Origin: a virus
Taxonomy: Duplodnaviria > Heunggongvirae > Uroviricota > Caudoviricetes
DNA: 61,023 bases
Direction: 5' to 3' (one strand)
Virus record (IMG/VR): IMGVR_UViG_2740892440_000003
Below the pieces are notes generated by a model. That model was not told the origin of the DNA and searched no databases. It saw only the letters and a program-made list of their open reading frames with translations. This document shows positions 3,504 through 59,778 of the stretch, piece after piece. The translations under genes were made by a program, and so were the position numbers. How positions within the stretch are numbered: position 1 is the stretch's first letter; each line of letters begins with the position of its first letter.

Positions 3504-3953
3504 ATGAAAAATCGTAGTTTCAACATTATCGCTTCTATTGCTATGGCTCTAATGTTAACTGGGTGTAAACAGTCAGAGATTGATAAACTCTCACTTATCG
3601 GTGAAGACAAGAGTTATCTTGAAGAACAGGACGAAGCCACTTTTGAAAAACGGACTCCAGACATAGAACTTTTTGCATTATACGATAAATCGTCACCTGA
3701 CGCTCAGGAACCACATACCACAGGAATGTTGATTAATGGCAAGGTTGAGTTGAGCATGACAACAAAAGTTGGCAAATATACCTTTATGCAATTAGATGAA
3801 ATGCTTACAAAAGAGTATGGGAAACCTGTTGCGACGAAGGACCATATCTTTGATAAGGCTGCAATCTCTGGTTTGGACTGCATTGAAACTAAAACCTGTG
3901 GTGCTGGTAAGTATTATGAAGTATTCCGAGGAAGGATCGGTTTGTATTATTGA
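3504..3953 (+). CDS. lipoprotein (149 aa)
   Basis: Signal peptide ending in lipobox LTGC; divergent from the SIR2 operon across an AT-rich promoter region. Confidence 0.55.
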   Translation: MKNRSFNIIASIAMALMLTGCKQSEIDKLSLIGEDKSYLEEQDEATFEKRTPDIELFALYDKSSPDAQEPHTTGMLINGKVELSMTTKVGKYTFMQLDEMLTKEYGKPVATKDHIFDKAAISGLDCIETKTCGAGKYYEVFRGRIGLYY

Positions 3954-41779: not shown

Positions 41780-42128
41780 GTTGTAACCCTTGAATATCAA
41801 CCACAGAAAGCTCGTCTTTGTAGAAAAATGCCAGGTTGTGGCACCCCCTCGTTTGAGCGTATGAGCTGGGACCAATTTCGTTCTTCCAGACAAATGGCTT
41901 CAAATCCGTACGGCGAAGCATAAAAACGCGATTTGTTCCGCTCTGATTCCCAATGAGGCAAAAGCCTTCTTTCACCTTGATAGCCTGCAAGTTGTCGAGT
42001 TCACCGCTGGTTACACGGCTATCGAACTCTTTGCGACTTATTAGCTCCATCTGCATCTGACGACTCCAAACAAATGCCCATTGAAGGGCGATGGCTGAAT
42101 GGTACCGAAAACACGACACAAAAAACAA
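41772..42128 (-). CDS. hypothetical protein upstream of hrdC
   Basis: ORF overlapping the hrdC start; the true start may be the internal Met ([11 protein letters not shown]). Confidence 0.35.
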
Positions 42129-42144
42129 TATTTATTAGAGCAAT
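42128..42144 (-). promoter_or_regulatory. C1 operator (16/17)
   Basis: atatttattagagcaat in the divergent intergenic region between the hrdC operon and the PAAR gene. Confidence 0.6.
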
Positions 42145-42225
42145 TTTGAAATATATAAACGCCATGTAGACCACAAAAAACCTAAGTTAAAATAACGAAA
42201 ATTAGAGCAAATTATTGGTGATTAG

Positions 42226-43307: not shown

Positions 43308-43346
43308 CAAAGGACTTCATTGATAATTTTTCTTCAGGAGGAAGAC

Positions 43347-43769
43347 ATGTCATTCTTTTCTACGTTAAAAACAGCTTTGTCTTTGAAGGAGAAACTTGCT
43401 GCTACTGGTGTTCTTGTTCTGATTTGCGCACTTGTTGGTGCTGGGTTTGCATGGGAACGTCATCAGCTAAAGCAAGCCATAGAGAAAATTGGCAGTCTTG
43501 ATCAGGCTGTTAAGGAACGTGATAAGTCAATAATGGATCTTAACCAGACCATTGAGACGATGAACAAAGCAGAGCAACATTTTCACAGCCAGGAAGTGAA
43601 AAATGAATCAGAACAAGCCAAGTATGCTGACAGGCAAATGGAACGAAAAGCTGAAGTTCAGAAACAACTGGTTGCGGCGGGTAATGTTCGCCAGCGTATT
43701 CCTGCTGACACTCAGCGGTTGCTCCGGGAGTCGATCAGCGAATTTAACGCCGACGCCGACAAAGGTTAA
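43347..43769 (+). CDS. i-spanin-like protein (N-terminal TM helix, periplasmic coiled coil)
   Basis: AGGAGG RBS 7 nt upstream of the ATG; one TM helix (GVLVLICALVGAGFAW) followed by a charged coiled coil. Confidence 0.45.
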   Translation: MSFFSTLKTALSLKEKLAATGVLVLICALVGAGFAWERHQLKQAIEKIGSLDQAVKERDKSIMDLNQTIETMNKAEQHFHSQEVKNESEQAKYADRQMERKAEVQKQLVAAGNVRQRIPADTQRLLRESISEFNADADKG

Positions 43770-43935
43770 CCACCCTGCCCCCAAAAGTGCATTTATGTGC
43801 AGGATGCCAGAGTTTAGCAGTGAATATTTTGATGATCTGCCAGCGTATATCCTCGATACAGAAACGATGCTGATGGGGATTAACAGGAAGAATCGCAACG
43901 TTAATGATTACAACGGAGCTATTAGCGGTAACTAA
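43624..43935 (+). CDS. o-spanin-like outer-membrane lipoprotein, partly embedded out of frame in the preceding gene
   Basis: Signal peptide with lipobox LTLSGC and a Pro-rich mature region; overlaps 43624-43769 of the upstream gene in the +1 frame, like overlapped Rz/Rz1 pairs. Confidence 0.4.
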   Translation: MLTGKWNEKLKFRNNWLRRVMFASVFLLTLSGCSGSRSANLTPTPTKVNHPAPKSAFMCRMPEFSSEYFDDLPAYILDTETMLMGINRKNRNVNDYNGAISGN

Positions 43936-43946
43936 AAGGGATTTTT

Positions 43947-44339
43947 ATGTCTGATAAAGTAACAGTAAAGCAAACTATCAACAAAGCGACTTCAATCTAC
44001 AAAATTGAGCAAATCACTGTTGGCAAGCCAGGATCAGAACAATACCGTCGTGCTTTCGAGCTTGCCGATCAGCTTGGTTTAAAACACCCGGATTGCATTG
44101 AGCATGTATTTCCGACCTATGCTGATGAGCAATGTACTCATGTTCTTATCGAAGAGGATTTTTTCAGCACTGAAGAACGAGAAGGCGTTGATCGCTGCAT
44201 TGGTGTGATTTGTTCTTCGGTAAGTGATGAGTTATTCCCTAATGTGCCTGAATATGGTGGTATTGGATACCAATTCCTGTACGAGGGCGATGAGCTTAAA
44301 TGCTATGAACATGGTCTTCTCATCGAAAGCGTAGAATAA
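43947..44339 (+). CDS. hypothetical protein (130 aa)
   Basis: ORF immediately upstream of oriR. Confidence 0.45.
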   Translation: MSDKVTVKQTINKATSIYKIEQITVGKPGSEQYRRAFELADQLGLKHPDCIEHVFPTYADEQCTHVLIEEDFFSTEEREGVDRCIGVICSSVSDELFPNVPEYGGIGYQFLYEGDELKCYEHGLLIESVE

Positions 44340-44380
44340 TACGACTCCCTTCCAACCGGCTACGTTGGCCGGTTTTTCAC

Positions 44381-55552: not shown

Positions 55553-56398
55553 TTACCCTCTGAATCCTGCCGGTATACCCCATTGTTCGTTATCTTTATT
55601 TTTGGCTAAAACCGCATTAAGAGCTTCGTTTACCGTCATGCAATGCGGCAGATTATCGAAGTTTGATATCCCGCCAATATCAGGAGAACGCTTGTTCTTC
55701 AGGTAAGTATATTTCCGCGCTGCCGCCTCTACTTTCTGCTTGAACTCATGTTTTTGAGCGCGTTTTTTGGATAACCGCAGATTGTCAGCCTTTGCTTTTG
55801 CCTCAGCGATCCATGAAGTCAATTTTTTGAGTCTGCTCGTTCCGGCACCGCCGGAAACTGATCTTTTTGTTTTTTTAACTTGTGACTTCTTATTCTTTAT
55901 TGCCACGTCATCCTGACAGGGGGAGGGGGTATCATTTTGACATGGGGGTGTGGATAAAAAATTAAATAAAGCCAATGTCTTAGCGAGAACCGCTTTAACT
56001 TTGGTTGCCGCTGAAGAGATCTTTAATTTGCTTTCAATCAGCGCATTTTTGGCTTGTTGTGCGAAGGCCAAAAAGGATGGTGTAAACCGGTACAGGTTAG
56101 CGCGACGTTCACGGTGATCGCCGATAACAATCTCTACCGTCAGGATTCCTTTGTTTACAGCTTCACGGAATGCACGAACGACGGTTGATTGGCTATAACC
56201 AGTTTCTGCCGCGATCATGCGGTGAGGCTTGTGAATGAAGTATTCACTGGTTGTTGCCGCAAGATTTGCACATTGCGACAGGATATGCCCGGCGCTACGG
56301 GATAGACCGGAGTGTGTTACAAAGCAGGCCAATTCATAGCCAGAAAAAGTAAAATCGCTCATCGTTATACAGCTCAGGAAAGTGACTTTAGCCAGCAT
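55553..56398 (-). CDS. repL: RepL-like lytic replicon initiator
   Basis: 281 aa directly downstream of kilA; HTH-like GYSQSTVVRAFREAVNKGIL. Confidence 0.6.
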   Translation of the reverse strand: MLAKVTFLSCITMSDFTFSGYELACFVTHSGLSRSAGHILSQCANLAATTSEYFIHKPHRMIAAETGYSQSTVVRAFREAVNKGILTVEIVIGDHRERRANLYRFTPSFLAFAQQAKNALIESKLKISSAATKVKAVLAKTLALFNFLSTPPCQNDTPSPCQDDVAIKNKKSQVKKTKRSVSGGAGTSRLKKLTSWIAEAKAKADNLRLSKKRAQKHEFKQKVEAAARKYTYLKNKRSPDIGGISNFDNLPHCMTVNEALNAVLAKNKDNEQWGIPAGFRG

Positions 56399-58966: not shown

Positions 58967-59265
58967 TTAGAGCAACATGCTGTTGGTATAGGTTTCCATA
59001 TATGCGCATATAAAATTGGAAATTGTATATAATTAGAGAGTGAGTTAGTGTCAATATTAAACCAACTCAACTAAATCAAGTGTAAATTATTAGCAGAGCA
59101 TATAATGTCGATAGTTGATTTTTTTTAGACTTAATATAACGCAGCTTCAGCAATGAAGATCGTATTTTTTATAATAATTGATATACATCAATAGGATTAA
59201 TCTTGTTTGTATTTGGCTTATGTGATAGATTTTCTTGGATTATATTTTTTTCTGGGATGATTCTA

Positions 59266-59778
59266 ATGGCTAAAATTTCTTCTTTATGCGTCATGGTTGT
59301 TTCTGCAATTTTTCTCTCAGGGTGTCAGTCTAATGGTGCTGAATATGCGGCAGATGTGTACGACACAGCCCAACTTAATTCAAAACAAGAAACAAGAGTA
59401 GTAAATATAATCTCTGTTCTCCCAGCCAAAGTAAAAGTTGATAATACAGCTAATAAACAAGCAGCTCAGACTTTCGGTGCTGTTCTCGGTGCAGTAGCTG
59501 GTAGTGTTGCTGGATATAATATTAAAGGAACTTCTACCTTGGGTGCAGTTGCTGGTGGTGCTGGCGGTGGAGCTCTTGGCGCAGCTGCTGGTTCTATGGT
59601 AAGTGATAAATCAATTGTTGAAGGTGTATCTCTTACTTACAAGGAAGGTACTAAAGTCTATACATCTACACAGGTTGGTAGAGCTTGCCAATTTGCCCCT
59701 GGAATCGCGGCTTTGATTTCAACGAAAGAAAACGAAACGCGCATTCAACCTAATGCTACATGTCCTGATAAAAAATAA
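59266..59778 (+). CDS. glycine-zipper outer-membrane lipoprotein (SlyB/PCP-like)
   Basis: Lipobox LSGC; G/A-rich zipper AVLGAVAGSVAG...GAVAGGAGGGALGAAAGS; AT-rich codon usage. Confidence 0.55.
   Translation: MAKISSLCVMVVSAIFLSGCQSNGAEYAADVYDTAQLNSKQETRVVNIISVLPAKVKVDNTANKQAAQTFGAVLGAVAGSVAGYNIKGTSTLGAVAGGAGGGALGAAAGSMVSDKSIVEGVSLTYKEGTKVYTSTQVGRACQFAPGIAALISTKENETRIQPNATCPDKK

Follow-up and report, generated by a model that had tools for sequence, protein, structure and literature searches.

The overlapping genes ppfA and mlp beside the replicon of P1-like phages: a probable two-component spanin, with a candidate late promoter and a possible second start of mlp

The overlapping genes ppfA and mlp, which an earlier note had singled out as resembling an i-spanin/o-spanin unit, lie on the plus strand of the window, by which we mean the whole stretch of 61,023 nucleotides that was analyzed (IMG/VR record IMGVR_UViG_2740892440_000003; Caudoviricetes). 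Over the 1.2 kb around the two genes, identity to phage P1 (NC_005856, positions 62889-64089, opposite strand) amounts to 99.7%, and identity to P7, SJ46, RCS47, and other P1-like phage-plasmids to 96-98%. The gene order ppfA, mlp, upfA, repA is also that of P1, whose record names the two genes P1_gp064 (ppfA) and P1_gp063 (mlp). On the 5′ side, ppfA is preceded by upfC, a PAAR-like tail-tip gene, and upfB, while mlp is followed by upfA, then oriR and repA. The pair adjoins the plasmid replicon (oriR/repA/parAB) and is unlinked to lyz, lydA/B, lydC, and lydD/E. A terminator-like hairpin between upfA and oriR likely marks the end of the ppfA-mlp transcription unit. The P1 record gives ppfA a “possible periplasmic function” and describes mlp as “membrane lipoprotein precursor, by homology,” with a possible part in lysis regulation, likewise by homology. 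The RefSeq product name of ppfA is still only “PpfA,” that of mlp is “Rz-like spanin,” and several P1-like GenBank records label the pair Rz/Rz1. The remark of the earlier note that the annotation of the P1 genes goes no further than a periplasmic function and a membrane lipoprotein is outdated.

The first gene encodes a product that is 100% identical to P1 PpfA (Table 1). The AGGAGG ribosome binding site that the earlier note had described is in place, at a spacing of 5 nt, and is kept in eight of nine aligned P1-like loci, with AGGGAGG in the ninth (L019). According to hydropathy prediction, residues 17-35 form the sole hydrophobic segment of the protein (Kyte-Doolittle 2.35 over 19 residues) and are preceded by a short, basic, presumably cytoplasmic tail with three K/R residues. 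The predicted topology is that of an i-spanin, that is, a single N-terminal transmembrane helix oriented N-in/C-out. The predicted periplasmic part comprises 104 residues, is rich in Glu, Lys, Gln, Arg, and Ala, and contains no cysteine. Heptad-like spacing is seen across residues 37-78, with hydrophobic residues at six to seven of the eight a/d positions within 37-71. An AlphaFold2 model calculated with 18 homologues (mean pLDDT 68.8) consists of a helix at residues 13-110, a loop at 111-119, and a second helix at 120-138. With moderate confidence, the model points to the helical periplasmic domain expected of an i-spanin, made of two helices and a linker. The N-terminal membrane helix and periplasmic coiled coil proposed beforehand agree with all of these predictions.

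The ATG of mlp stands 256 nt after that of ppfA, so the second gene is read in the +1 frame. The two genes overlap by 167 nt and mlp continues for 166 nt past the ppfA stop codon, which, together with the lipobox LTLSGC, reproduces what had been noted for the second gene. Where P1 has the Shine-Dalgarno-like AGGAAG before mlp, a divergent clade has AGGAGG. Mature Mlp would comprise 71 residues with Ser at position +2, a non-Asp residue that permits sorting to the outer membrane. The protein carries the signal peptidase II signal, lipobox cysteine, and non-Asp +2 residue expected of an o-spanin, and its Cys66, aligned with a cysteine of P2 LysC, supplies the expected periplasmic cysteine (at least one). 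The two genes are adjacent, as in two-component spanins generally, and their overlapped arrangement is conserved in the relatives. The mature protein had also been called proline-rich; this holds only moderately (6 Pro in 71 residues, four of them within the first 25) and was overstated, lambda Rz1 being far richer. A Tat-type signal, suggested by an “RR” in the Mlp leader, was rejected since the twin arginine varies among the relatives and is not conserved.

Table 1. Features at and around ppfA/mlp (positions in the window)
Feature	Position	Strand	Details
upfB stop codon TAA	43305-43307	+	5′ of the candidate promoter
Candidate Lpa-type late promoter	43309..43327	+	-22 box AAAGGACTT at 43309-43317, 4-nt spacer, -10 GATAAT at 43322-43327
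ppfA Shine-Dalgarno AGGAGG	43336..43341	+	5 nt before the ATG at 43347; read from the sequence
ppfA, probable i-spanin, 140 aa	43347..43769	+	Open reading frame; product 100% identical to P1 PpfA
PpfA predicted membrane helix, residues 17-35	43395-43451	+	Most hydrophobic 19-residue window
mlp Shine-Dalgarno-like AGGAAG	43591..43596	+	6 nt before the ATG, within ppfA codons Q-E-V
mlp, probable o-spanin precursor, 110 aa as annotated	43603..43935	+	Open reading frame, +1 frame
Possible alternative or true mlp start, TTG codon 24	43672..43674	+	16 codons before the lipobox Cys
Mlp lipobox L37-S38-G39-C40	43711-43722	+	Lipobox LTLSG/C; Cys40 codon at 43720-43722
Mlp Cys66, single conserved periplasmic Cys	43798-43800	+	Sequence
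upfA	43947-44339	+	3′ of mlp
Terminator-like hairpin followed by a T run	44354..44374	+	After upfA, before oriR; consensus scan only

The conservation of the second frame was examined in relatives whose PpfA is 59-96% identical to that of P1 (L002, L003, L005, L008, and L010-L013) and in two more distant ones, L019 and L021, from an exhaustive HMMER profile search. Relatives at 59-64% PpfA identity were Cronobacter phage JK004 and several contigs, among them some from Salmonella and Klebsiella samples. An open reading frame of about 110 codons with a lipobox, in the +1 frame and starting at the same place, is kept in all nine P1-like relatives that were read. It runs 151-166 nt past the stop codon of the i-spanin gene, and its C-terminal half is conserved. 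The lipoboxes of the relatives read LTLS[AG]C, LTLN[AG]C (L003 and L005), LILSAC, or LSLSSC. The second cysteine, Cys66, is invariant within the motif (A/S)(F/S)MC(R/T)(M/L)P. Outside the overlap, the Nei-Gojobori dN/dS of mlp codons 56-109, computed for the mlp frame, is 0.07-0.16 (several pairs are saturated in dS), and the amino acid identity of this part (74-81%) exceeds its nucleotide identity (72-77%). For ppfA, codons 1-85 give 0.12-0.26. Within the overlap, the first 27 codons of mlp drift freely while ppfA is conserved there, and the nucleotide identity of the region peaks, at 83-87%, in mlp codons 28-55, which encode the hydrophobic core, the lipobox, and the beginning of mature Mlp, as double coding predicts. 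Purifying selection acts on both frames, and the selection on the +1 reading frame and its conservation lead to the conclusion that mlp is translated and selected.

These data bear directly on the possibility that ppfA is a real gene and “mlp” an untranslated chance reading frame in the +1 register. Alternative-frame reading frames of about 100 codons do occur nearby, such as one of 116 aa on the minus strand in upfB, and gene callers omit mlp in several relatives. The selection analysis already refutes a chance origin, however, and the length, start codon, lipobox, and Cys66 of the frame are kept in all relatives read, its product resembles P2 LysC (E = 1e-7), and a correctly spaced Shine-Dalgarno sequence precedes it. 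We give this explanation practically no weight.

The family of PpfA is narrow. A tblastn search of the phage collection returned 19 records and a word-indexed protein search 76 proteins; in an HMMER scan of 1.84 billion representative proteins, 33 reached E ≤ 1e-3, and the matches come nearly all from P1-like phage-plasmids. A scan of genome contigs for the locus returned three near-identical loci only. Because of this narrowness, gene context in unrelated lysis cassettes could not be used as evidence.

Comparison with characterized phages places the pair closest to LysB/LysC of phage P2. PpfA matches phrog_89, “Rz-like spanin,” over its full length (5.1e-25), the family that P2 LysB matches at 5.8e-61. 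Mlp matches phrog_30284 (7e-78) and, weakly, the P2 LysC family phrog_456 (2.8e-5), and P2 LysC in turn matches phrog_456 (1.7e-31) and, weakly, phrog_30284. In a BLASTP alignment spanning 68 residues (E = 1e-7), Mlp residues 24-90 are 37% identical to LysC residues 1-67, and both cysteines are matched. The best NCBIfam matches are the corresponding P2 models, TIGR03495 (phage_LysB) for PpfA at 18.2 bits against a curated cut-off of 92.75, and NF038368 (P2_Rz1) for Mlp at 14.7 bits against 27, so that neither protein reaches the curated cut-off of its model. No significant similarity was found between PpfA and P2 LysB by BLASTP, or between the PpfA profile and LysB or lambda Rz by hhalign. Pfam at E ≤ 1 gave no Rz-family match, only sub-threshold coiled-coil noise for PpfA and a sub-threshold LPAM_1 match for Mlp, and a profile search of the PDB gave nothing relevant. 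A Foldseek search of BFVD with the PpfA model returned one meaningless match (E = 1) and is uninformative, because a long single helix offers no searchable fold. With PpfA lacking direct similarity to LysB, homology on the i-spanin side depends on the PHROG profile, whose members may include PpfA itself, and on the shared architecture. On these sequence comparisons, Mlp is a homolog of P2 LysC, and the homology of PpfA to LysB holds at the PHROG level.

The architecture of the two P2 genes is similar as well. In P2, lysC starts in the +1 frame within the 3′ part of lysB, overlaps it by 146 nt, and extends 145 nt beyond, and the proteins are of similar size (LysB 141 aa and PpfA 140 aa; LysC 96 aa and Mlp 110 aa). 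The P2 pair, however, stands within the lysis cassette after Y, K, and lysA, whereas the P1 pair is unlinked to lysis genes; annotated Mlp carries 23 additional basic N-terminal residues relative to LysC; and the family columns of Table S1 in Kongari 2018 (PMC6139136) give “P1” for both P1 proteins. With lambda Rz/Rz1 the likeness is one of functional class: a type II inner-membrane i-spanin with a helical periplasmic domain, and a +1-frame gene for the o-spanin, a small lipoprotein of the outer membrane, with at least one periplasmic cysteine for a homotypic disulfide. The lambda proteins differ in family (phrog_13 and phrog_3198, neither of them a family of the P1 pair), and PpfA has no Pfam match to Rz and an hhalign probability of only 1.6% against it. 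They differ in arrangement, with Rz1 wholly embedded in Rz whereas mlp reaches beyond ppfA, and also in detail, as Rz has two periplasmic cysteines and PpfA none, and mature Rz1 is shorter and far more proline-rich than mature Mlp. The T4 spanin genes pseT.3/pseT.2 are separated, without overlap, and the T4 o-spanin has two essential cysteines; like the P1 pair, they are unlinked to the holin and endolysin genes of their phage (Kongari 2018, PMC6139136). From the conserved features, the homology of Mlp to LysC, and the phrog_89 match, the overlapped two-component architecture recognized in the earlier note is supported, and ppfA/mlp is very probably the two-component spanin of P1, in overlapped arrangement and distantly related to P2 LysB/LysC.

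A close examination of the region between the upfB stop codon and the ppfA ribosome binding site revealed a candidate promoter of the late type. In P1 it reads AAAGGACTT-catt-GATAAT, followed by eight bases and AGGAGG (43309-43341). In the examined part of the P1 record, five late promoters are annotated, and they share the form AARTKAYTW-N4-TANNNT. No match to the strict P1 consensus with at most one mismatch was found upstream of upfC or ppfA, and the site emerged only from a relaxed or position weight matrix (PWM) search combined with comparison across clades. Two further matches to the relaxed pattern, at 56380 and 29107, fall within repL and gene 26 if the window is assumed to be collinear with NC_005856, and neither is annotated as a promoter. 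P1 and six diverged relatives share the identical geometry box-N4-(-10)-N8-AGGAGG but differ in the spacers, and the corresponding site of the diverged clade has the sequence AAGTGACTT-N4-GAGAAT or AAATGACCT-N4-(G/C)A(A/C)AAT. The -10 element never begins with T. The PWM was built only from P1 late promoters (training sites 17.9-22.8 bits) and both strands were scored. It ranked the site as the best of the whole locus in L002, L003, L010, L011, L012, and L013, with 13.6-18.7 bits in the five divergent loci and 10.1 bits in L013; of six diverged loci, five had it in first place and the sixth in second. The P1 site itself is weak, at 7.8 bits and rank 49 of 122,010 window positions. The element, 20 nt before the ppfA ATG, is thus strong in diverged relatives and weak in P1, and we regard it as a candidate promoter. 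It is absent from the RefSeq annotation, which gives two predicted sigma-70 promoters only at this locus.

The start of mlp also deserves attention. The annotated ATG at 43603 is conserved and preceded by a Shine-Dalgarno sequence, but gives a highly basic leader of 39 residues, an unusually long signal sequence; Table S1 of Kongari 2018 (PMC6139136), which lists LipoP cleavage of Mlp at residue 39, likewise remarks that the signal sequence is too long. With a start at codon 24, the signal peptide would be only 16 residues long, M-RRVMFASVFLLTLSG followed by the lipobox cysteine, and Met1 of P2 LysC aligns opposite the residue of this codon in BLASTP. Codon 24 is TTG in P1, L008, L013, and L019, and ATG in L003, L005, L010, L011, and L012, while two relatives have no start there (AGG in JK004, TTA in L021). 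The ppfA residue above it varies (V, D, or H), its codon being always GTT, GAT, or CAT. No Shine-Dalgarno sequence was found before codon 24 at 43672. Neither the late promoter upstream of ppfA nor a dual start of mlp is mentioned in the P1 RefSeq record or in the literature searched, to which Lobocka 2004 and Summer 2007 did not belong, and both may be undescribed features of the P1-type spanin unit. That ppfA-mlp has its own Lpa-dependent late promoter and mlp two conserved in-frame starts is a tentative proposal, to which we would give less than even odds.

Another spanin elsewhere in the genome, which the earlier note had raised as evidence to the contrary, was not seen: when the window and the other 35 kb of P1 (L006, with lyz and lydA-E) were scanned in six frames for lipoboxes, no spanin-like candidate besides mlp emerged. 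Three lipoprotein reading frames, at 3504-3953, 34989-35816, and 59257-59778, were rejected as spanins because their mature domains are large; they comprise a protein of the SPFH/Band 7 type, a protein similar to TraT or glycine-zipper proteins, and a protein of no known family.

Functional data for the two genes come from CRISPR interference with P1vir, in which the plating efficiency was 0.24 and 0.19 for mlp and 1.3 and 1.2 for ppfA, and both genes were scored non-essential for plaque formation (Piya 2023, PMC10695390). In the same study the “essential” score of lambda Rz is, according to its authors, confounded by polarity in the late operon (Piya 2023, PMC10695390). Spanins are dispensable for lysis in shaken laboratory cultures (Bednarek 2022, PMC9025707), and a non-essential score is what would be expected for spanins under ordinary plating, so that this result neither supports nor refutes the assignment.

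Two other explanations of the pair draw on this result. According to the first, ppfA and mlp form an envelope module expressed by the prophage, for example a Bor-, Cor-, or TraT-type lipoprotein for surface exclusion or host fitness and its partner in the inner membrane, with no role in lysis. Its position beside the replicon and away from the lysis genes would suit such a module, as would the presence of only predicted sigma-70 promoters in the P1 record and the dispensability of both genes for plaques. The T4 spanin genes are, however, just as unlinked to holin and endolysin (Kongari 2018, PMC6139136), and the genes upstream in the cluster, upfC and upfB, are not maintenance genes. Neither the homology of Mlp to LysC and the place of PpfA in the LysB PHROG family, nor the overlapped +1 architecture shared with P2 lysB/lysC, nor the conserved late-promoter-like element before ppfA fits this explanation, and we consider it quite improbable. 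According to the second, the pair would only modulate the timing of lysis and would not disrupt the outer membrane. Such a role is suggested by the note on lysis regulation in the P1 mlp record, by the notes in the P2 record that lysB and lysC are nonessential and affect lysis timing, and again by the CRISPR interference result. These notes are older wording for the same phenotype, as lysis in shaken culture is delayed or incomplete when spanins are defective, and P2 lysB/lysC is now a textbook overlapped spanin (Kongari 2018, PMC6139136). We see little chance that this second explanation is the correct one.

If ppfA/mlp is the spanin of P1, its action can be outlined by analogy with lambda Rz/Rz1 and T4 PseT.3/PseT.2, from which we infer the topology, the complex, the disulfide, and the membrane fusion. 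PpfA would insert into the inner membrane via its N-terminal helix and project a helical stalk of about 100 residues into the periplasm. Mlp would be lipidated at Cys40 and, with Ser at +2, sorted to the inner leaflet of the outer membrane, where it probably dimerizes via its single conserved Cys66; at least one homotypic disulfide is required in spanins (Kongari 2018, PMC6139136), a rule that Cys66 fits. In the periplasm the two proteins would join into bridges that pass through the peptidoglycan mesh. Triggering of the holin LydA and degradation of the wall by the SAR endolysin Lyz would free these bridges to collapse, and their collapse would fuse the inner and outer membranes and so remove the last barrier to virion release. 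ppfA-mlp may be expressed late, from the candidate Lpa-type promoter. If true, a late promoter of its own would account for the timing of this spanin with lysis despite its distance from the lysis genes, and two starts of mlp could yield isoforms that differ in the kinetics of export or lipidation, loosely like dual-start lysis genes.

P1 is reportedly one of the classic phages that lacked annotated Rz/Rz1 equivalents before the survey of Summer and colleagues in 2007. The comparison with a curated spanin set that the earlier note had proposed leads to exactly this pair: in Table S1 of Kongari 2018 (PMC6139136), P1 NC_005856 is entered as “ovl,” its overlapped i-spanin being gp064 and its overlapped o-spanin gp063, with the same sequences, ribosome binding sites AGGAGG and AGGA, respectively, and zero periplasmic cysteines in the i-spanin and one in the o-spanin. 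Bednarek 2022 (PMC9025707) also names ppfA and mlp as the predicted spanin genes of P1 and, in the statement concerned, credits their identification to Summer et al. 2007. Bednarek 2022 (PMC9025707) labels ppfA the o-spanin and mlp the i-spanin there; the sequence reverses these labels, with ppfA as the i-spanin gene and mlp as the o-spanin gene. As the pair already stands in a curated spanin set, the spanin reading is not new: it is supported as correct, and it was catalogued bioinformatically years ago.

The significance of the assignment is small beyond annotation tidiness. P1 is a classic model phage with unusually scattered lysis genes. The selection on both frames, the link to P2 LysB/LysC, the candidate late promoter, and the possible second start of mlp provide concrete hypotheses for work on the P1 spanin.

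A site between upfB and the i-spanin gene ppfA, of the form AAAGGACTT-N4-GATAAT, resembles in sequence the Lpa-dependent late promoters of P1 and is regarded here as a candidate of this type; the P1 RefSeq record carries no annotation of a late-promoter-like site at this position. Diverged P1-like elements share its place and geometry, and in them no other site of the locus scores as high with a matrix (PWM) built from the annotated P1 Lpa-dependent late promoters, except in locus L005. A second candidate site lies ~50 nt 5′ of upfC, a PAAR-like gene; ATGCGACAAGTCATAAAAT is one instance of its sequence. In five P1-like loci the site scores 10.5-12.6 bits, ranking next-best in four of them and first in L005. 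Its P1 counterpart, AAAAAACCTAAGTTAAAAT, is a poor late-promoter match.

Coordinates of promoter-like, operator, terminator-like, and lipoprotein features (window positions unless a locus is named)
Feature	Position	Strand	Remark
Lipoprotein-signal ORF	3504-3953	+	Not spanin-like
Lipoprotein-signal ORF	34989-35816	-	Not spanin-like
Lipoprotein-signal ORF	59257-59778	+	Not spanin-like
C1 operator Op68	42128-42144		Within dmt/upfC intergenic difference cluster
upfC-upstream site, window counterpart	about 42175-42193
upfC-upstream late-promoter-like site	L003:1840, L005:1845, L010:341, L011:341, L012:342		PWM
Candidate Lpa-type late promoter	43309-43327		Between upfB and ppfA
Terminator-like hairpin + T run	44354-44374		Directly 3′ of upfA, 5′ of oriR

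Between 42000 and 44700, the P1 DNA of the window differs from NC_005856 at 28 positions, 12 of which are clustered in the 107-nt dmt/upfC intergenic region (42119-42225). The ppfA gene shows no difference, and in the overlapping o-spanin lipoprotein gene mlp the codon for Cys66 is altered silently at 43800, with R105G (43915) being the single substitution in Mlp. A ppfA with 99% identity to that of P1 was also observed on a 5.9-kb contig (JAFAFU010000017.1) binned in a "Bacillota bacterium" MAG; the contig is most likely an enterobacterial P1-like fragment that was binned wrongly.

Bednarek et al. (PMC9025707, Introduction) labelled ppfA as the o-spanin and mlp as the i-spanin; the sequences show the reverse assignment, with the membrane helix in PpfA and the lipobox in Mlp. 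A start-capable codon (TTG or ATG) is present at mlp codon 24 (43672-43674) in 9 of 11 family members, and Met1 of P2 LysC aligns with it. A codon-24 start could be the reason for the remark "too long signal sequence" on Mlp in the curated spanin table (Kongari et al. 2018). Three further ORFs with good lipoprotein signals were considered as spanins and none is spanin-like: one belongs to phrog_15156, with no known family, another is an SPFH/Band 7 lipoprotein (PF01145, 1e-30), and the remaining one gives weak matches to TraT and glycine-zipper.

The hairpin 3′ of upfA is probably the end of an upfC-upfB-ppfA-mlp-upfA unit. Between mlp and the plasmid origin lies a variable slot, occupied in the window by upfA (43947-44339), which is missing from L003; L005, L010, L012, and L019 have a Phage_gp49_66-family gene in its place. 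Unlike this slot, ppfA-mlp is found in all loci read.
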